Assembly (NCBI GenBank): GCA_035429665.1
Contig: DAOMFF010000001.1
Location: 1-33,224 of the forward strand
Direction: 5' to 3'
Length of the DNA: 33,224 nucleotides
Origin: Azonexus sp.
Lineage (GTDB): Bacteria; Pseudomonadota; Gammaproteobacteria; Burkholderiales; Rhodocyclaceae
Position 1 is the first letter of the stretch, and every line of letters begins with the position of its first letter. Positions 12,048 through 30,482 of the stretch are shown here, piece after piece. The position numbers and the translations under genes are program-made. The notes below the pieces were generated by a model. It was not told where the DNA came from, did no database searches, and worked only from the letters and a program-made list of their open reading frames with translations.

Positions 12048-12096
12048 GCGCTCGACGAAGAGACCGGTGAAAATCTGACCGAGCATGCAAGAGCTT

Positions 12097-12696
12097 ATGA
12101 GCGAGCGCGAGATTGACCAGATACTGGTCGAGCGGGCGCAAGCTGGCGATCGACACGCCTTTGATCAGTTGGTTAGCAAGTATCAGCGCAAGCTGGGGCG
12201 TCTGCTATCGCGCTTCATTCGCGATTCCGCCGAAATCGAGGATGTGACGCAGGAAGCCTTTATCAAAGCCTACCGGGCGTTGCCGTCGTTTCGCGGCGAC
12301 AGCGCCTTCTATACCTGGCTTTACCGGATCGGCATCAACACGGCCAAGAATTACCTGGTCGCCCAAGGCCGGCGCGCACCGACATCGACCCAGTTCGACA
12401 GCGAGGAAGCGGAGACTTTCGAGTCCGCCGATCAACTGCGCGATATCAACACCCCGGAAAGTCTTCTGATGTCGAAGCAGATCGGGGAAACCGTCAATTC
12501 CGCCATCGACGCGTTGCCCGAGGAGTTGCGCAGGGCGATTGTCCTGCGTGAAATTGACGGGCTGTCCTACGAGGAAATCGCGGACATGATGGATTGCCCG
12601 ATCGGCACCGTGCGCTCGCGCATCTTCCGCGCCCGTGAGGCGGTGGCCCTGAAGCTGCGGCCCTTGCTCGATATCGCGCCGGATCGCCGCTGGTAA
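12097..12696 (+). CDS. rpoE: ECF sigma factor RpoE (AlgU)
   Basis: DVTQEAFIKAYRAL, FYTWLYRIGINTAKNYL and LSYEEIADMMDCPIGTVRSRIFRAR. Start at 12097 or 12085. Confidence 0.96.
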   Translation: MSEREIDQILVERAQAGDRHAFDQLVSKYQRKLGRLLSRFIRDSAEIEDVTQEAFIKAYRALPSFRGDSAFYTWLYRIGINTAKNYLVAQGRRAPTSTQFDSEEAETFESADQLRDINTPESLLMSKQIGETVNSAIDALPEELRRAIVLREIDGLSYEEIADMMDCPIGTVRSRIFRAREAVALKLRPLLDIAPDRRW

Positions 12697-12699
12697 TTG

Positions 12700-13137
12700 A
12701 TGAATTCCGAACCAAGTACGGTCCGCGCCATCGTCCGCGAGATCAACCAAGCCGATGCCCTGGTCGAGATAGAGCAGGGAGGTTGCGGGCGCTGCCACGA
12801 ACCGGGCGGCTGCGGCGGTCAGCAGCTAACCCAGATGTTCTGTTCGACGCCGAAAACCTATCGGGTCGCCAACGAAATCGGAGCCGGGGTCGGCGATCGT
12901 GTAACGGTCGAGATAGCCGCGGGCAGCGTTCGCCGGAGCGCGAATTTGGCCTATGTTCTGCCGTTGACCGCAACTATCGCCGGCGCGGTGCTCGGGATGC
13001 TTCTCGGAGACGATCCAGGGGCGATGCTTGGTGGTCTGGCCGGTTTGCTTGTCGCGTTTCTTCATGTCCGCCGCCGTGCGGCAGCGGGTACTGGTTTTTC
13101 CGCAAATCATCCCCATATCGTTTCCCGTTCGTCTTAA
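12700..13137 (+). CDS. rseC: RseC/MucC family protein
   Basis: GCGRCHEPGGCG Cys motif, VGDRVTVEI, AYVLPL and two C-terminal TM helices. Confidence 0.85.
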   Translation: MNSEPSTVRAIVREINQADALVEIEQGGCGRCHEPGGCGGQQLTQMFCSTPKTYRVANEIGAGVGDRVTVEIAAGSVRRSANLAYVLPLTATIAGAVLGMLLGDDPGAMLGGLAGLLVAFLHVRRRAAAGTGFSANHPHIVSRSS

Positions 13138-13159
13138 GCAATTCAGGAGGTACACGCCA

Positions 13160-14578
13160 ATGAAGCGTTTTCTGGCTCTCTTTTCATTCCTTCTTGTTTC
13201 TTCATTGGCGCTTGCGCAGACCCGTGGTCTGCCTGACTTCACCGAGCTGGCCGAGAAACAGGGACCGGCCGTCGTCAATATCAGCACGACGCAGGTGATG
13301 CGCGGCAACCAGGGAATGCCCTTTCCGTTCGACGAGAGCGACCCGGCCTTCGAATTCTTCAAGCGCTTCATTCCCCGGGGACCGGGAGGCAGCACACCGC
13401 GCGAGTTCGAGAACAAGTCGCTCGGGTCGGGCTTTATCATGAGCCAGGACGGCTATATTCTGACCAATGCCCATGTCGTCGACGGCGCGGATGAAGTGAC
13501 CGTGCGCCTGACCGACAAGCGTGAATTCAAGGCGAAGATCATCGGCGCCGACAAACGCACTGACGTCGCGCTGCTGAAGATCGAGGCCGGTGGACTCCCG
13601 GCCGTAAAAATGGCGGATCCCGCGCAGCTCAAGGTCGGCGAGTGGGTTGTCGCCATCGGTTCGCCGTTCGGTTTCGACAATTCGGTGACGGCGGGTATCG
13701 TTTCGGCCAAGGGCCGTTCATTGCCGCAGGAGAACTACGTCCCCTTCATACAGACGGATGTCGCGATCAATCCCGGCAATTCCGGCGGTCCGCTGTTCAA
13801 CATGCGCGGCGAGGTGGTCGGCATCAATTCGCAGATCTACAGTCGCAGCGGTGGCTACATGGGCGTCTCCTTCGCCATTCCGATCGACGTTGCCATGGAT
13901 ATCCAGAACCAGTTGCGCGTCTCGGGCAAAGTCAGCCGCGGTCGTCTCGGCGTGGTGATTCAGGAAGTCAGCAAGGAACTGGCGGAGTCACTGGCGTTGA
14001 GCAAGCCGATGGGTGCCGTCGTAAATGCGGTCGAAAAGGGCGGGCCGGCCGACAAGGCGGGACTCGAGCCGGGTGACGTCATCCTCAAGTTCGATGGCAA
14101 GCCGATCAATGCTTCCGCCGACCTCCCGCGCATGGTGGGTGCAACCAAGCCGGGAACCCGATCGACGCTTCAGGTCTGGCGCAAGGGCGCGACCCGCGAC
14201 ATCGTCGTAACCGTGGGCGAGATGAGCGACGAGAAAGTGTCTGCCAGTCGTCCTTCCCGTGGGGGTAAGCCTGCGGAACAGCAGGCCAATCGCCTCGGAC
14301 TGGTGGTGAGCGAACTCACTGCAGAGCAGAAGCGGGACCTCAAGATGTCCTCCGGCCTGCTGATCCAGGATGTTCGCGGTGCCAATGCGCGGGCCGATCT
14401 GCGTCCCGGCGATATCATCATCGCGCTGATCAGCAAGGGGGCAACGACCGAAGTCACGACGGTCGAGCAGTTCAACAAGTTGCTGGCGCAGTTCGAAAAG
14501 GGCAGCAACATTACCCTCCTGATTCGCCGTGGCGAGATGCAGTCCTTCGTGACCATCAAGGGTCTCAATGGTAATTGA
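13160..14578 (+). CDS. degP: DegP/DegQ (MucD) periplasmic serine protease
   Basis: Signal peptide, LTNAHVV, TDVALLK, INPGNSGGPL and two PDZ-like domains. AGGAGG RBS. Confidence 0.92.
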   Translation: MKRFLALFSFLLVSSLALAQTRGLPDFTELAEKQGPAVVNISTTQVMRGNQGMPFPFDESDPAFEFFKRFIPRGPGGSTPREFENKSLGSGFIMSQDGYILTNAHVVDGADEVTVRLTDKREFKAKIIGADKRTDVALLKIEAGGLPAVKMADPAQLKVGEWVVAIGSPFGFDNSVTAGIVSAKGRSLPQENYVPFIQTDVAINPGNSGGPLFNMRGEVVGINSQIYSRSGGYMGVSFAIPIDVAMDIQNQLRVSGKVSRGRLGVVIQEVSKELAESLALSKPMGAVVNAVEKGGPADKAGLEPGDVILKFDGKPINASADLPRMVGATKPGTRSTLQVWRKGATRDIVVTVGEMSDEKVSASRPSRGGKPAEQQANRLGLVVSELTAEQKRDLKMSSGLLIQDVRGANARADLRPGDIIIALISKGATTEVTTVEQFNKLLAQFEKGSNITLLIRRGEMQSFVTIKGLNGN

Positions 14579-14813
14579 CCTGACTCTTCTCAGCCGTAGT
14601 TACTGCCACCTTTGTCAAGAGATGGAGGTGGCATTGGCACCGCTGGCGGAAGAATTTGGCGCTTCGGTGACGGTTCTCGATGTCGATTCCGATCCCCAGC
14701 TCGAAGCCAGATATGATGAACTGGTACCCGTTCTGCTGCATGGTGAAAGCGAAATCTGCCATTACTTTCTGGACGAGGTCAAAACCCGTGAATACTTGGC
14801 CGGAATCCGCTAG
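14568..14813 (+). CDS. Glutaredoxin-like protein (DUF836)
   Basis: SRSYCHLC (CxxC) and YDELVPVL. Usual position between degP and lepA in Betaproteobacteria. Confidence 0.82.
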
Positions 14814-14836
14814 AATTCAAGGCCTTCTGAACAAGG

Positions 14837-14864
14837 AAGGGCGCTGCAAAAGCGCCCTTTTTTT
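14837..14864 (+). terminator. Intrinsic-terminator-like hairpin immediately upstream of lepA
   Basis: AAGGGCGCT-GCAAA-AGCGCCCTT followed by a T-run (7 T in total). Confidence 0.65.
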
Positions 14865-14874
14865 ACTCGCATCA

Positions 14875-16665
14875 ATGGATCACATCCGCAACTTCTCCAT
14901 AATCGCCCATATCGACCACGGGAAATCGACACTTGCCGATCGCATCATCCATCTTTGCGGTGGACTGTCGGACCGCGAGATGGAGGCCCAGGTTCTCGAT
15001 TCGATGGATATCGAACGCGAGCGTGGCATCACCATCAAGGCGCAGACTGCGGCGCTGCAATACAAGGCACGTGACAGCAAGGTCTACAACCTGAACCTGA
15101 TCGACACGCCGGGACACGTTGACTTCTCGTATGAGGTTTCGCGTTCATTGTCCGCCTGCGAAGGTGCTCTTCTGGTTGTCGACGCCTCGCAAGGTGTCGA
15201 GGCGCAAACCGTCGCCAACTGCTACACGGCGCTTGAACTCGACGTCGAGGTTGTGCCGGTGCTGAACAAGATCGACCTTCCCTCGGCTGACCCCGACAAT
15301 GCGCGACAAGAGATCGAGGACGTGATCGGCATCGACGCAACCGACGCCATCCTTGCGTCGGCGAAGACGGGACGGGGGGTTGACGATATCCTTGAAGCGG
15401 TGGTTGCACGCATTCCGCCACCCAAGGGCAATCCGGAAGGGCCGCTCAAGGCCTTGATCATCGACTCGTGGTTCGACAACTACGTCGGCGTTGTCATGCT
15501 GGTGCGGGTGGTTGACGGGGTCATGCGGCCGAAGGACAAGCTTCTTTTCATGGCGAGTGGTGCCCAGCAGCTGTGCGAACAGGTCGGCGTATTTTCCCCG
15601 AAGTCGGTTTCGCGCGACGCACTGCGCGCAGGCGAAGTGGGGTTCGTCATTGCCGGGATCAAGGAATTGCAGGCGGCCAAGGTCGGCGACACGATCACCA
15701 GGGTCGACCGCAAGGCGAGCGAACCCTTGCCGGGGTTCAAGGAAATAAAGCCGCAGGTGTTTGCCGGACTCTACCCGGTCGAATCCAATCAGTATGACTC
15801 CCTGCGCGAATCGCTGGAAAAGCTGAAACTCAACGATGCGTCGCTGCACTACGAGCCAGAGGTTTCGCAGGCGCTTGGTTTCGGTTTCCGCTGCGGATTT
15901 CTGGGCCTGCTGCACATGGAAATCGTCCAGGAGCGCCTGGAACGCGAATTTGATCAGGATCTTATCACCACGGCGCCGACCGTCGTCTACGAGGTCGTCA
16001 TGCGCGACGGCTCGGTCGTTCAGGTCGAAAATCCGGCCAAACTGCCGGAACTGAGCAAGGTCGAAGAGGTGCGCGAGCCGATCATCACCGCCACGATCTT
16101 CGTGCCTCAGGATTATCTGGGAAACGTCATCACGCTGTGCAACCAGAAGCGTGGCAATCAGGTCGATATGCATTACCACGGCCGTCAGGTAAAGCTGGTT
16201 TACGAAATTCCGATGGCCGAAGTGGTGATGGATTTCTTCGACCGCCTGAAGTCGTGCTCGAAAGGCTACGCGTCGCTTGACTACGAGTTCAGGGAATACC
16301 GCGCAGCCGATGTGGTCAAGCTGGATATTCTCATCAACAACGAGAAGGTGGACGCCCTGTCGCTGATCGTGCATCGCGCCAACTCGCAGTATCGCGGCCG
16401 CGAACTGGCCGCCAAGATGCGTGAACTGATTCCCCGCCAGATGTACGACGTGGCGATTCAGGCAGCGATCGGATCGCATATCGTTGCCCGCGAGAACGTC
16501 AAGGCGATGCGCAAGGACGTTCTGGCCAAGTGCTATGGCGGTGACATCACACGCAAGAGAAAACTTCTGGAAAAACAGAAGGCCGGCAAGAAGCGCATGA
16601 AACAGGTCGGCAGCGTGGAAATTCCGCAGGAGGCCTTCCTCGCCATCCTGCGTGTCGATAGCTGA
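14875..16665 (+). CDS. lepA: Elongation factor 4 (LepA)
   Basis: [35 protein letters not shown] and [10 protein letters not shown]. Confidence 0.97.
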
Positions 16666-16676
16666 GATTTCAACCA

Positions 16677-18380
16677 ATGAATTTTGCCCTGATTCTTTTC
16701 GTGCTGACAGTCGTGACCGGTGTGCTCTATGCGGTCGACGTGCTGAAATTCCGGAAGTTGCGTGAGCGGAAGTACGCGTCCTTCTATGGCTTGACCAGCA
16801 AGCCCTTCCTGGCAAACCCCGATTCGAAGTTCTATTTTCCCAGCGAGGCACATCTGCGTGCCACGGCGTATCTCGATTACGGCATGCAGCAGAATGAGGG
16901 CTTCGTCATCATTACCGGGGAATCAGGCACGGGCAAGACGACGATCATTCGCAGGATGCTCGAAAGTCTGGATCCGGACAAGGTAATCGCGGCGCATCTC
17001 GTGAGTACCCGGGGCGATGCCGACAACACCTTGCGTCTTGTCGGCGCGGCATTCGGTATTCACACCAAGGGTGTCGAGAAATCCGAAGTCCTCCAGTCCC
17101 TTGAGGCGTTCCTAATCGGCCTGACGAGCAAGGGCAAGCGCTGCCTGCTTATCGTAGACGAGGCGCAGAATCTGACTGTCAAGGCCGTCGAGGAATTGCG
17201 CACGCTTTCGAATTTTCAGTTCGGCAACCAACCCCTGCTGCGAAGTTTTCTCGTCGGGCAACCCGAATTCCGTGAAATCCTGCAGAGCCCTCAATTGACG
17301 CAATTCAGGCAGCGGATCATTGCCTCCTACCACATCGAGCCGATGAGCGAGGCGGAGACGTTTGACTACATCGGGCACCGGCTCAAATGCGCCGGGGCAA
17401 GTGGATGTCCCAGCTTTACGCCGGATGGCCTTGAGGCAATATTCAAGGCCACAGGCGGGATTCCCCAGCGTATCAATTCACTTTGCGATCATCTGCTGCT
17501 GTTTGGCTATCTCAACAACAAGAAGGAATTCGACGCCAAGGACGTCGAGGAGGTTGGCAAAAAAGCTACAGGTACCCGGGGCTCAGCATCGGGCCGGGCA
17601 CAACGCGCCGCAGGCCAAAGTTCCGGATCCGGATGGATGCAGGCCTTTGCCGATCGGGTTCTGGATGGGCAAGGTGAGTCCAACGAAGCCAAGGAACCGC
17701 TGTGGGTGGAATGGGGCGCCAGTTTCTTCCCGGTCATCCTGGTCGTCTTCTTGCTGCGCTCCTTCCTTTTCGAGCCGTTCAAGATCCCCTCGGGTTCGAT
17801 GATTCCGACCTTGCAGGTTGGCGACTTCATCCTGGTCAACAAGTTCATCTATGGCATCCGGTTGCCGGTCATCAACAAGAAGATCATCGACATCAAGTCA
17901 CCACAGCGGGGCGACGTAATGGTTTTCCGCTACCCGGAGGATCCTTCGCTCGATTACATCAAGCGCGTCATCGGGCTGCCGGGCGATACAGTTGCCTATC
18001 AGAACAAGCGTCTGAGCATCAACGGTCAGCCTGTCGAAACGACGAAGATTTTCGACTACCATCATCCGGAACGCCTCTACTACTCGGAACAATATGTCGC
18101 TAGAATTGGCGATGTCGAGTACAGGTACCTGAACGACAGTGATGCACCGGCGTTGATCCCCGATGCGACCCGGTTTCCGTATAGGGACAATTGCACCTAC
18201 AATGCGGCCGGTGTCATCTGCAAGGTACCCGCCGGGCATTACTTCATGATGGGCGATAATCGCGACAACAGCCGCGACAGTCGATTCTGGGGTTTTGTGC
18301 CCGAGCAGAATATTGTGGGCAAGGCATTCTTTATCTGGTTGAACCTGAGCAGTCCCAGCCGGATCGGTTCCTTCAAGTAG
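16677..18380 (+). CDS. lepB: Signal peptidase I with an in-frame inserted ExeA/PEP-CTERM-type AAA+ ATPase domain (567 aa)
   Basis: TM1 is aa 1-22 and TM2 about aa 343-365. Catalytic Ser374 (IPSGSMIPTL), Lys429 (DYIKR) and MGDNRDNSRDSRFWGFV are present. aa 32 to about 295 carry YASFYGLTSKPF, Walker A GESGTGKT and Walker B LLIVDEAQNL. Confidence 0.9.
   Translation: MNFALILFVLTVVTGVLYAVDVLKFRKLRERKYASFYGLTSKPFLANPDSKFYFPSEAHLRATAYLDYGMQQNEGFVIITGESGTGKTTIIRRMLESLDPDKVIAAHLVSTRGDADNTLRLVGAAFGIHTKGVEKSEVLQSLEAFLIGLTSKGKRCLLIVDEAQNLTVKAVEELRTLSNFQFGNQPLLRSFLVGQPEFREILQSPQLTQFRQRIIASYHIEPMSEAETFDYIGHRLKCAGASGCPSFTPDGLEAIFKATGGIPQRINSLCDHLLLFGYLNNKKEFDAKDVEEVGKKATGTRGSASGRAQRAAGQSSGSGWMQAFADRVLDGQGESNEAKEPLWVEWGASFFPVILVVFLLRSFLFEPFKIPSGSMIPTLQVGDFILVNKFIYGIRLPVINKKIIDIKSPQRGDVMVFRYPEDPSLDYIKRVIGLPGDTVAYQNKRLSINGQPVETTKIFDYHHPERLYYSEQYVARIGDVEYRYLNDSDAPALIPDATRFPYRDNCTYNAAGVICKVPAGHYFMMGDNRDNSRDSRFWGFVPEQNIVGKAFFIWLNLSSPSRIGSFK
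16770..17561 (+). other. AAA+ ATPase domain (ExeA/GspA; XrtA/PEP-CTERM-associated ATPase-like) inside lepB
   Basis: Family-type motifs: YGLxxKPF, AYLDYG..EGFVIITGESGTGKTT, DEAQNL..VEELR.LSNF, FLVGQPEF, RQRI, YIGHRL and GGIPQRIN. Confidence 0.85.
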
Positions 18381-18388
18381 GAGAAGAA

Positions 18389-18739
18389 ATGAAATATCAA
18401 CGTGGGGTGGCTCTTTCGGGACTCATTTTCTGGGGCGTCGTGATAACGCTGGTGGCCGTGCTGGGGATGAAGGTCGTGCCGACAACAGTCGAGTACTACA
18501 AGATTCTCAAGGATATCAAGGCAACGGTTAACAAGGTGGGGCCCGAAGCGACGGTTGCCGATGTCAGAAGGACTTTCGACAACTTCGCCAATATCGATCA
18601 ACTCGACTTCAAGCCGGAACAACTCGATGTTTCCAAGGAGCGGGGCAAGATCGTGGTTTCATTTGATTACGACAAGCGCATTCCGCTCTTCGGCAATGTC
18701 AGCCTGGTGATCAACTACAAAGGTTCGACCGCCGACTGA
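18389..18739 (+). CDS. DUF4845 family protein
   Basis: Pilin-like N-terminus (QRG plus hydrophobic helix) and YDKRIPLFGNVSLVI. Conserved lepB-rnc position. Confidence 0.82.
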   Translation: MKYQRGVALSGLIFWGVVITLVAVLGMKVVPTTVEYYKILKDIKATVNKVGPEATVADVRRTFDNFANIDQLDFKPEQLDVSKERGKIVVSFDYDKRIPLFGNVSLVINYKGSTAD

Positions 18740-18746
18740 GCCCCAG

Positions 18747-19418
18747 GTGATTGACTTGTCGACGCTGGCGGCGGCGTTGGGGCATGTCTTTGCCGATCGC
18801 GAGTTGCTGCAGACTGCGCTGACACATCGCAGCTTCGGCAACCCCAACAACGAGCGGCTCGAATTCATCGGCGATGGGGTTCTCAACTGCGTGATTGCCG
18901 TGGCGCTTTTCAGGCGCCATCCGGATTTGGCGGAAGGCGAGCTTTCGCGGTTGCGTGCCAATCTGGTTCGTCAGGATGCGCTGCACAGGTTGGCCGTTAT
19001 GCTGAATATCGGCACCTACCTGCGTCTGGGCGAGGGCGAACTGAAAAGCGGTGGCAGCGAGCGGCCGTCGATTCTGGCCGATGCTGTGGAGGCGCTGATC
19101 GGAGCCGTCTATCTCGATGGTGGCTTCGACGCCGCGCAATCGCTCATCGCTCGCCTTTACCTCCCCATGTTCGACGAACTGACGCCGGGCCAACTCGGCA
19201 AGGATGCCAAGACCCGCTTGCAGGAGTGGCTGCAGGGCCGAAAGAAGCCGTTGCCGCGCTATCAGGTCATCGAGGCCAGCGGCGCGGCCCATGATCAGCG
19301 CTTCGAGGTCGCTTGCGAAATCGAGAATCCCGCCTTGCGCACGATCGGGCAGGGCAGCAGCCGTCGTCTGGCCGAGCAGGCCGCTGCCGACAGCGCACTG
19401 AAGGCACTCAAGGCATGA
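18747..19418 (+). CDS. rnc: Ribonuclease III
   Basis: [32 protein letters not shown] and dsRBD ([12 protein letters not shown]). Confidence 0.96.
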
Positions 19419-28618: not shown

Positions 28619-29079
28619 TTGCCCCCCCACGGCTGGATCGGCACCGTCGAGATGGCGTTGGCGGGCGCGCCCTCGATGATCTTGCGGCTGATCGCCAGAT
28701 AGACCAGCACATTGCGCTTGCGGTCGACGAAACGCGTGATTTTCGTTTCCTTGAAGATCAGCGAGGTGTTTTCGCTGAAGACGACATCTTCGTCGGGGAG
28801 ATTCGCCGGCAGGGTGATCGGCCCGACCTGGCGGCACGCCAGTGAAAACTGTGACGGGTCTTCGGCCAGCCCGAAACTGCCCTTGACGCCGCCGGTGCGC
28901 GCCTGGCTGACGTGGCAGGTGACGCCGGGAACCTTCGGGTCGTCGTAGGCATAGACGCAGACCCGGTGGTTGGCGCCGATCAGCTTCCAGGCGGTGGTGG
29001 CGCAGCCGATCTCCTCGGCCGCGACAGAAAGACTGGGCAAGGCGAGGGTGGCGACAAGCAGTGTGTTGTAGGGTTTCAT
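28615..29079 (-). CDS. creA: CreA family periplasmic protein
   Basis: Signal peptide, DDPKVPGVTCHVSQARTGGVKGSFGLAEDPS, ACRQVGPI and NAISTVP. Confidence 0.9.
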   Translation of the reverse strand: MKPYNTLLVATLALPSLSVAAEEIGCATTAWKLIGANHRVCVYAYDDPKVPGVTCHVSQARTGGVKGSFGLAEDPSQFSLACRQVGPITLPANLPDEDVVFSENTSLIFKETKITRFVDRKRNVLVYLAISRKIIEGAPANAISTVPIQPWGGK

Positions 29080-30482
29080 CTCAGAGTTACTCCAGGATTG
29101 GCAGGGCGAGCGAATATCAACGGAATCATCTTCGCCACGTACTTGACGACAATCTTGTAGGTGTCTCGGTCGAATGGCGGGCGGCCGGCATCGAGCAGGG
29201 CCTGGATTTCCTCGTCGGATCGCACAGTGCCGAGGTAGCGCCAAGCGTGGATCACGTGGGCTTCGTCGCCTTCGCGGATCAGCGCGAGGCCAGCGAATGG
29301 CCAGGAAACGAGCTTGAGCCGGGCCAGTGCGGCGACCAGGCGCAGCGTGTGCTTGGCGAATGGCTCGTTGCCGATGCAGGCACCCCGGCAACGCTTGATC
29401 TGGTAGCCGAAGCAGGGTTTGCCGGGGACTGTCTTTTCCAGACCGAGCAGCGCGTCGCACAGATTGTGCTCGACGGCCAAGGCGCGCAGCGTTTCGCCGG
29501 CTTCCCTGGCGCTCTTGAACAGGCCGTAGCACGAGGCACCACTGCCGAAGTCGAGATTGCGCGCCGCGGCGAGTTCCGGGCGCAGCCAACCGTTACCTTC
29601 GTCGACCAGTGTCCACGTGCAGATATCTTCGTTCCGGCGCAGTTGGCGGTTATGGCTGGGCTGAAGTTGTTTGACCAGTGCGGCTTCCTTGAGCAGGGCG
29701 CCGATCTCGCCGGCGGTTTCGATCCAGTCGATGCGCCTGACCTGCTGGGCGAGGTTCATTTCCCTGGCCGAACTGTGGTCGGCCGAGAAATGCGAGAGCA
29801 CCCGCTGGCGAATGTCCCGGGCCTTGCCGACGTAAAGCGGCAGATCGTTGTCGGCGTAGAAAAGATAGACGCCTGGAGTGTCGGGCAACTCGTCGACGAT
29901 GCCAGCGTCGAGGTGCGGCGGCAGGCTGGGGCGGCCGTTCTGCGCCTTGAGCGCAGCCTCGATTTCGTCGCTGCTGCGGTCGACGTGGATTTTTTGCCAG
30001 AATTGGCGGATCAGTTGCGCATCGGCCAGTGCCCGGTGGCGAGCGCCGACTGCCAGATTGTGACGCTCGATGAGCGAATCCAGATTGTGCCGCTGGTGTT
30101 CCGGGAACAGGCTGCGCGACAGCTTGACCGTGCACAGCACCGGCGCCCGGAAGGCGACGCCGAGGCGCTTGAACTCGTTCTTCAGGAAGCCATAATCGAA
30201 GCGCGCGTTGTGGGCGATGAACAGCCGGCCCTCCAGTCGGCGCAAGGTTTCGTCGGCAACATCGGCGAAGGCCGGGGCAGCGGCCACCAGCTCGTTGCTG
30301 ATCCCGGTCAGTTGCTCGATGAACGGCGGGATGCGGGTGCCCGGGTTGACCAATTGCTGCCACTCGCGCACCGATCCATCCTCATCCACTTCGATGATGC
30401 CGATTTCGGTGATGCGGTCGCTGGTGGCGGTGGCGCCGGTGGTTTCGAGGTCGACGAAGGCCAGGGGCCAGCAGGCACTCAT
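29076..30482 (-). CDS. DEDDh 3'-5' exonuclease (DnaQ-like) fused to a GIY-YIG (Cho/UvrC-like) endonuclease domain
   Basis: FVDLETTG, AHNARFD and HRALADA, then PGVYLFY..LYVGKA..RQRVLSHF and Cys cluster (LC..PCFGYQIKRCRGAC). Confidence 0.88.
   Translation of the reverse strand: MSACWPLAFVDLETTGATATSDRITEIGIIEVDEDGSVREWQQLVNPGTRIPPFIEQLTGISNELVAAAPAFADVADETLRRLEGRLFIAHNARFDYGFLKNEFKRLGVAFRAPVLCTVKLSRSLFPEHQRHNLDSLIERHNLAVGARHRALADAQLIRQFWQKIHVDRSSDEIEAALKAQNGRPSLPPHLDAGIVDELPDTPGVYLFYADNDLPLYVGKARDIRQRVLSHFSADHSSAREMNLAQQVRRIDWIETAGEIGALLKEAALVKQLQPSHNRQLRRNEDICTWTLVDEGNGWLRPELAAARNLDFGSGASCYGLFKSAREAGETLRALAVEHNLCDALLGLEKTVPGKPCFGYQIKRCRGACIGNEPFAKHTLRLVAALARLKLVSWPFAGLALIREGDEAHVIHAWRYLGTVRSDEEIQALLDAGRPPFDRDTYKIVVKYVAKMIPLIFARPANPGVTLR

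Follow-up and report, generated by a model that had tools for sequence, protein, structure and literature searches.

Does a signal peptidase that harbours a complete ATPase in its cytoplasmic loop make any use of it? This question is raised by the lepB gene on a contig of Azonexus sp. (assigned to Azonexus/Dechloromonas by its named relatives; GenBank assembly GCA_035429665.1, contig DAOMFF010000001.1, positions 1 to 33,224 of the forward strand; these 33,224 nucleotides are referred to as the window), where a single uninterrupted reading frame spanning positions 16677-18380 encodes a LepB whose two transmembrane segments (TM1 and TM2) are separated by an AAA+ domain of the TIGR03015/ExeA type. 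Signal peptidase I is essential and, according to the textbooks, independent of ATP, and we know of no regulation of this enzyme from the cytoplasm. The comparisons presented here indicate that the fusion is real and surprising on an essential enzyme, but narrow in its distribution and dispensable, and what we say on its function is a proposal: we favour, with a probability of about 50%, a housekeeping signal peptidase I with an exapted ATP-binding, probably self-assembling module whose original job in exopolysaccharide (EPS) export has likely been lost.

The architecture postulated in the original prediction, i.e. LepB TM1, ATPase, linker, TM2 and peptidase, was confirmed by profile models, and the motifs it had named are all found where it had put them. 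The ATPase segment (amino acids (aa) 33-293) scored 364.2 bits with TIGR03015 (curated cut-off 324.5), the family type assigned originally. The peptidase segment scored 174.6 bits with TIGR02227 (aa 348-556; cut-off 47) and 198.4 with PF10502 (cut-off 22.9); the narrower PRK10861 model gave 257.8, below its own cut-off of 277. Pfam placed AAA_22 on aa 72-202 and Peptidase_S26 on aa 343-554, and the ATPase domain also contains a GQPE motif. Hydropathy exhibits two peaks, in 19-residue windows that begin at aa 1-8 and at aa 341-353. Among possible internal starts for a LepB without TM1, just one in frame is accompanied by a Shine-Dalgarno-like stretch, namely Val344, and it falls within TM2. E. 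coli LepB is described as having an N-out TM1 and a catalytic domain in the periplasm (PMC7396858); by analogy, TM1 of the fusion would be N-out, the ATPase cytoplasmic and the protease periplasmic, and the claim that an ATPase is topologically viable in this loop appears right to us. The gene order is lepA, fused lepB, DUF4845 gene, rnc and era; thus, the lepA-lepB-rnc position claimed originally holds as operon context, but one small gene separates lepB and rnc. The protein shares this context, the predicted TM1 and TM2, the Ser-Lys dyad and the GDNRD box with E. coli-type LepB (S26A; PDB 1T7D, 1B12), whereas the loop, ~12 residues long in normal alleles of the genus, is here enlarged by 305 residues that include a folded AAA+ domain.

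One might suspect an assembly artefact that joins lepB to an ATPase gene, as the source genome (G000) is 68% complete and consists of 377 contigs, and as one database record (P0028) does look chimeric: here LepB TM1 and the first half of a fused-type ATPase give way to another ATPase, of the free type and with a tail of its own, a peptidase is missing, and the record, with one member on one 2-kb contig, is probably a chimeric assembly. For the window, however, the probability of an artefact is negligible. A junction query identified the fusion in 8 of 129 genomes of the genus (G000, G016, G040, G042, G063, G071, G092 and G106) and in none of 400 sampled genomes of the family (E 1e-25). A pattern of the junction DNA, which required a genus-type LepB start and is thus blind to distant fusions, was found in seven GTDB records, including that of a named isolate (L035), and at 17 metagenome loci. 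Pooled loci and database proteins, with truncated and frameshifted loci left out, comprise 50 distinct full-length fused sequences, which are 71-100% identical to the window protein and form 14 groups at 95% and 9 groups at 90% identity. Single DNA contigs cover both junctions in runs X5 (16622-17986) and X6 (16581-17741), each listed as a run from which the assembly may stem (the four runs examined come from four studies), and contigs of RNA libraries, in which DNA carry-over is possible, bridge the 5' junction in 3/4 runs (X15, X17, X19) and the 3' junction in 4/4 runs (X15, X17, X19, X20). Most runs containing the stretch bear sludge metagenome labels. The eight genomes, the 17 metagenome loci, isolate L035, the 14 groups, the bridging contigs and the codon-level selection described below rule out a chimeric assembly, and the singleton that the original prediction had also considered is refuted by the 50 sequences. 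One further fused lepB (L036), with a protein identical to that of the window, lies on a contig in a bin labelled Rhodospirillales, which is probably mis-binned or mislabelled.

Neither the 120 top-ranking of 8000 scored candidates (whole-protein or peptidase-region query) nor the 150 top-ranking representatives at 50% identity included an independent fusion from elsewhere; the latter library hides fusions, and the window's own family is absent from it. The apparent novelty of the architecture claimed originally agrees with literature searches, which turned up no description of this fusion (subscription journals and supplements lay outside the coverage). In databases the architecture is hidden because the proteins are plainly named 'signal peptidase I' or 'ATPase'.

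How did the ATPase enter lepB? The 25 normal alleles of the genus that were compared encode proteins of 261-270 aa whose loop is short and typically reads KFRKLR-A-KDAKEP, and the insertion, measured as 16765-17679 and thus matching the junctions first estimated at ~16767 and ~17678, lies inside the Ala codon of LR-A-KDAKEP. In many free TIGR03015 genes, the few bases just ahead of the ATG match the first bases of the insert, the donor ATG is now AAG (Lys32) in the window, with Lys or Arg at position 32 in 50/50 fused proteins, and the linker aligns with linkers of free ATPases (P0030, P0031, P0036, P0037); the conserved C-terminal tail of the donor is absent. ATPase and linker account for the entire insert, without signs of a self-mobile element (insertion sequence, intein) such as terminal repeats or a splicing or mobility domain, and there is no anomaly in GC content over the insert (0.71 vs 0.75 at third codon positions). 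As inspection of the junctions revealed no target-site duplication and as only 1-2 bases are shared at each end, illegitimate recombination is suggested, and we infer that the insert derives from an EPS-locus ATPase gene captured at such 1-2-base microhomologies. In a tree, 17 fused inserts lie on one side of a branch and 14 free paralogs on the other (support 100/100); by this phylogeny the insertion arose once. The event is old, since the synonymous divergence (dS) of the insert reaches 0.64-1.08 between distant carrier lineages, similar to that of lepA for the same pairs. Free and fused domains of the genus are ~67-72% identical.

Two side observations concern the same region of the gene. 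Related LepBs (P0277, P0278; peptidase 74% identical) carry a different insert of ~105 residues, without a Pfam match, in the same loop. Moreover, the TM1 DNA (16677-16763) of fused alleles is unusually conserved at third codon positions (0.82 vs 0.68 in the peptidase; 0.61 vs 0.59 in normal alleles) and is, for example, 98% identical between lineages whose lepA genes are 87% identical; gene conversion or a constraint at the mRNA level may be behind this pattern.

Is the insert then simply decaying? In codon models on 16 complete genes, the ratio of nonsynonymous to synonymous substitution rates (dN/dS) was 0.125 (insert), 0.74 (linker) and 0.065 (TM1); on 17 inserts dN/dS was 0.130, with a log likelihood (lnL) of -4495.9 vs -4838.4 at dN/dS 1. 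The linker, which adjoins the insert, constitutes an internal neutral control. Neutral decay, which the original prediction had weighed, is rejected by the dN/dS of 0.13 and the lnL gap: the insert is under purifying selection, ~4-fold weaker than that on free paralogs (dN/dS 0.035, n=14). The 252-residue core has no indel in 50/50 sequences, whereas linker lengths differ by as many as 19 residues.

The AlphaFold model of the AAA+ domain comprises a full AAA+ module (predicted local distance difference test score (pLDDT) 93); that of the full-length protein, built from 17 sequences, was poor (pLDDT 41). The nearest solved folds are Cdc6/ORC, MuB and TnsC (PDB 1FNN, 8XVB, 7PLH), with Z scores of 20-21 and a root mean square deviation of ~3 Å over 227-252 residues; in a profile search of the PDB, matches to fused epimerase domains prevailed, and the ATPase itself was not informed by it. 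All three are described as oligomerising in an ATP-dependent manner, with an arginine finger that acts in trans (PMC3894238), but they are only 14-17% identical to the insert and bind DNA, and nothing here indicates DNA binding. ExeA belongs to the same ATPase class and has what appears to be the same layout, i.e. cytoplasmic ATPase, transmembrane segment and periplasmic domain; in Aeromonas, the cytoplasmic ATPase of ExeA is described as needed for complex formation, with ExeAB giving large multimers (PMC4098917). In contrast to ExeA/GspA, the fusion has a predicted periplasmic protease in place of a peptidoglycan-binding domain and an additional N-terminal transmembrane segment, and its neighbours are lepA, the DUF4845 gene and rnc, without an adjoining exeB or secretin gene.

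Most motif roles used in the following are general knowledge on AAA+ proteins, and the RQR motif is, from knowledge of the family, taken by us to be the arginine finger. Further background for reading the residues comes from PMC3894238 and PMC11208146. K87, T88, T89, D161, E162, Q164, N165, E197, R211, Q212 and R213 exhibit no change on the 17-sequence tree, on which four-fold sites average 2.0 changes. Nevertheless, the insert is not an unaltered ATPase: of the 161 positions with an invariance of at least 98% across 95 free ATPases, the 35 fused segments all retain only 85, Q112, Q189, H71 and H185 are replaced in 35/35, and Arg264 is Gln in the window. At this sensor-2 position the 50 fused proteins contain Arg (31), Gly (10), Gln (6) or Trp (3), i.e. 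the Arg is lost in 19/50, with five changes on the tree, which puts the position among the four most-changed sites. It aligns with the Arg of the RFC2 motif GDMR, although this match is weak (E 0.04), and begins the lid helix in the AlphaFold model. Within aa 110-151, a region chosen post hoc, 3/14 family-invariant polar residues are kept vs 32/59 elsewhere (Fisher p 0.04). Seen with general knowledge of AAA+ proteins, the nucleotide site and the trans-acting face seem to be kept, and the lid sensor and a probable partner-binding face lost.

In the reading that we favour, the captured AAA+ domain in the TM1-TM2 loop would bind ATP and self-assemble head to tail via the conserved arginine-finger face in an ATP-dependent manner, and this assembly would cluster the peptidase in the membrane. 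Hydrolysis or its coupling may be weakened where sensor 2 is lost, and the insert would provide an accessory benefit that is unnecessary for catalysis, the original role in EPS export having likely been given up. Judged from its sequence, the domain likely still binds ATP; self-assembly is plausible by analogy, with oligomerisation, one of the possibilities named in the original prediction, still a prediction. A bolder version, in which the sole signal peptidase I of these bacteria is assembled by its own AAA+ domain into rings or filaments and in which the ATP of the cytoplasm thereby governs how the protease clusters, how stable it is or how active, is doubtful; if true, it would describe a nucleotide-responsive signal peptidase that is of use where sludge and sediment alternate between feast and famine and that spreads between lineages as a swappable allele.

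Several observations weigh against the favoured reading. As 128/263 insert sites are likewise without any change, the invariance of the catalytic residues does not stand out from the rest of the domain, and the same residue pattern would be expected if bound nucleotide simply stabilised the fold. GQPE is changed in 2/35 fused segments (AQPE, GRSE), and the rate at which family-invariant residues are lost is similar for polar and non-polar ones (p 0.27). The linker of two fused loci, G042 (13 N in 18 kb) and L054, contains a 1-base indel, in both cases a probable sequence error. The carriers are only 8/129 genus genomes and do not form a clade on rpoB or gyrB (genomes without the marker left out; approximately unbiased (AU) test, p 1.6e-67 and 1.4e-45). 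Finally, the fused locus L040 and the normal locus of G052 (G052:C14:28000-42000, L092) have flanks that are 97-100% identical and peptidases that are ~85% identical; with flanks at ~99% identity, one species holds both alleles.

This last pair is a natural fused/unfused pair in which the lepB body was swapped from the end of TM1 to the last codons (dS 0.03 in lepA, 0.88 in the peptidase). As to the direction of the swap, a loss in G052 is mildly favoured. On the lepA tree, too, the carriers are not one clade (five changes). The insert is dispensable, as carriers have normal alleles nested among them, in one case inside a single species; since it is present on two peptidase types (262 and 270 aa), it also seems to have spread, and both losses and horizontal gains have likely occurred.

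These facts are at the heart of an alternative that is possible, if less probable than the accessory module, namely that the ATPase is a trapped passenger: a permissive loop tolerated the insertion, removal needs a precise deletion or an allele swap, and selection merely maintains the fold, perhaps with nucleotide as stabiliser, so that the essential peptidase inserts properly and escapes degradation. The ~4-fold relaxed constraint (0.13 vs 0.035), sensor 2 being among the most-changed sites, the nested normal alleles and the exchange of the whole lepB body between L040 and G052 fit this view, as does selection of similar strength in three subsets with or without EPS and PEP-CTERM genes (dN/dS 0.098, 0.121, 0.137). 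Inserts in the same loop of related LepBs (P0277, P0278) and the readiness with which this ATPase family fuses (UDP-GlcNAc epimerase, deacetylase, DnaJ) point the same way. For a passenger, however, a big in-frame deletion should be harmless, yet none is seen in 50 sequences over a dS near 1, all shortenings being confined to the linker; moreover, a monomeric passenger should not need the trans-acting RQR, which is invariant, and the two peptidase backgrounds suggest that the insert also spread.

In the peptidase half, the Ser-Lys dyad and the GDN..S.DSR box are intact in 50/50 fused proteins, the region matches signal peptidase I in the PDB with E 1e-52, and its dN/dS is 0.049. Five carriers were searched for further S26 proteins. 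In G016, G040 and G063 the fused lepB was the sole hit, the only other match in G071 (100% complete) was short (E 1.9e-17), and G042 had three further matches, all weak and short. The additional proteins in G071 and G042 look like conjugation-type peptidases, the one in G071 being putatively of the TraF/TrhF type. Signal peptidases are called indispensable for secretion in PMC9360617. By sequence, the fused LepB thus belongs to signal peptidase I and is best described as the housekeeping enzyme; as no other housekeeping-type lepB was found, it must serve all substrates. Its presumed cleavage of preproteins is indirectly supported by the dN/dS of 0.049 and by its being the sole copy. As a side note, non-carrier G032 (6% contamination) has two near-identical normal lepA-lepB loci (G032:C15, G032:C20), which probably represent two strains.

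The original prediction had seen in the fusion a possible Rosetta-stone link of the ATPase family to signal-peptide processing, with a peptidase dedicated to, or gated by ATP for, PEP-CTERM or floc proteins. The donor family does sit in XrtA loci, the window genome has two PEP-CTERM matches above cut-off, and PEP-CTERM proteins are described as carrying cleaved N-terminal signal peptides (PMC9850573) and as important for flocs (PMC9850573; bioRxiv 10.64898/2025.12.21.693542). Such a role is nevertheless very improbable. Exosortase and PrsK are present in only 4/8 carriers (G016, G040, G042, G106). Carrier G071, although 100% complete, revealed no exosortase, PEP-CTERM protein or PrsK, and xrtA is missing from its usual slot within a continuous contig that retains the EPS locus and the free ATPase (G071:C1:4000-23500, L059). 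In G092 (90% complete) and G063 (74%) no exosortase, PEP-CTERM protein, PrsK, chain-length gene or free ATPase was found; incompleteness weakens these absences, yet the genes sit at several unlinked places, and the insert is conserved at least as well there (dN/dS ~0.08). Conversely, the non-carriers G052, G032 and G044, all with a normal lepB, possess the whole XrtA/PEP-CTERM system. In the window genome, tblastn of 10 proteins of the G016 locus detected no XrtA locus genes and no exosortase was found, which is not counted as absence because the genome is 68% complete and has PEP-CTERM genes. Furthermore, the Rosetta-stone argument needs recurrence, whereas the fusion has a single origin and did not recur in the 400 family genomes or the top protein-search matches. 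The PEP-CTERM-specific role is thus rejected as a general explanation, and nothing in the analysis links the fusion to PEP-CTERM or floc proteins.

The free ATPase family itself seems to be tied to EPS export and not to sorting, since G071 and the near-complete non-carrier G047 (L064), which has neither exosortase nor PEP-CTERM protein nor PrsK, keep the EPS locus and the ATPase without exosortase. In addition, TIGR03015-type ATPases are often C-terminally fused to UDP-GlcNAc 2-epimerase-like domains, while a polysaccharide deacetylase and a DnaJ domain occur once each as fusion partner (P0030, P0134, P0140, P0144, P0145, P0153, P0221, P0208); for this family these fusions are a stronger Rosetta-stone hint than LepB.

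A free TIGR03015 gene (score 413-420) is kept in five carriers (G016, G040, G042, G071, G106) and was located for G016 and G071 in a Wza/chain-length/kinase/TIGR03016/epimerase locus, with xrtA in G016. Fused LepB could thus be a membrane-tethered partner of the free ATPase, recruiting LepB to polysaccharide export or damping the ATPase as a hydrolysis-poor subunit, and both the similarity of the two domains and the conservation of the putative assembly face would allow this. We regard it as improbable: searches of G092 and G063, whose inserts are conserved at least as well, yielded neither a free paralog nor a chain-length gene, and the fusion lacks the conserved C-terminal tail that characterises the free protein. 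The fused domain shares the score above the curated cut-off and intact Walker A, Walker B and RQR motifs with the free ATPases, but it lies outside an EPS locus in the lepA operon, is membrane-tethered, lacks the start Met, has often lost the sensor-2 Arg, evolves with a ~4-fold higher dN/dS and is kept in genomes without exosortase or PEP-CTERM proteins.

Whichever explanation is right, a 30-kDa AAA+ domain has been carried in frame and under selection across several activated-sludge Azonexus lineages. If the domain assembles or senses ATP, this would be a new way of controlling protein export; if it is a passenger, the locus is an unusually clean natural example of a domain caught inside an essential gene, for which the neutral linker serves as internal control and a single species provides both alleles. 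In either case, what was kept (nucleotide site, assembly face) and what was lost (sensor 2, aa 110-151, tail) may mark the EPS-specific surfaces of the uncharacterised TIGR03015 family.

Table 1. Coordinates of the fused lepB gene, its parts and its neighbours in the window.
Feature	Position	Strand	Remarks
Fused lepB	16677..18380	+	567 aa, 63.6 kDa; TM1, AAA+ insert, linker, TM2, predicted periplasmic S26 peptidase
LepB TM1 (~aa 1-23) and basic flank KFRKLR (aa 24-29)	16677..16764	+	native lepB; hydropathy, matches normal genus alleles
In-frame insertion, 915 nucleotides, 305 codons	16765..17679	+	junction comparison with normal lepB alleles and DNA upstream of free ATPases
TIGR03015/ExeA-type AAA+ domain (aa 32-298), complete alpha/beta core and lid	16770..17570	+	TIGR03015 score, AlphaFold model, fold search
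Walker A GESGTGKT (aa 81-88)	16917..16940	+	kept in 50/50 fused proteins
Walker B LLIVDE (aa 157-162)	17145..17162	+	VDEAQN kept in 50/50
RQR (aa 211-213), putative arginine-finger motif	17307..17315	+	QFRQR in 50/50
Gln264 at the sensor-2 arginine position	17466..17468	+	Arg in 95/95 free ATPases
Low-complexity linker (aa 299-335)	17571..17679	+	donor ATPase linker by alignment; near-neutral
LepB TM2 (~aa 343-365)	17703..17771	+	hydropathy
S26 peptidase, predicted periplasmic	17772..18377	+	Ser374 (17796-17798), Lys429 (17961-17963), GDNRDNSRDSR (18252-18284)
lepA (EF4), upstream operon partner	14680..16665	+	TIGR01393; model match starts at residue 68 of the open reading frame
DUF4845 gene (18389-18739) and rnc (18747-19418)	18389..19418	+	downstream context

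Two further features of the window stand apart from lepB. At 12085-14578, rpoE is directly followed by rseC and a DegP-type protease, with no open reading frame for rseA or rseB in between. At 29076-30482 on the reverse strand, close to uvrC, a Cho/UvrC-type nuclease domain is joined to a DEDDh exonuclease.

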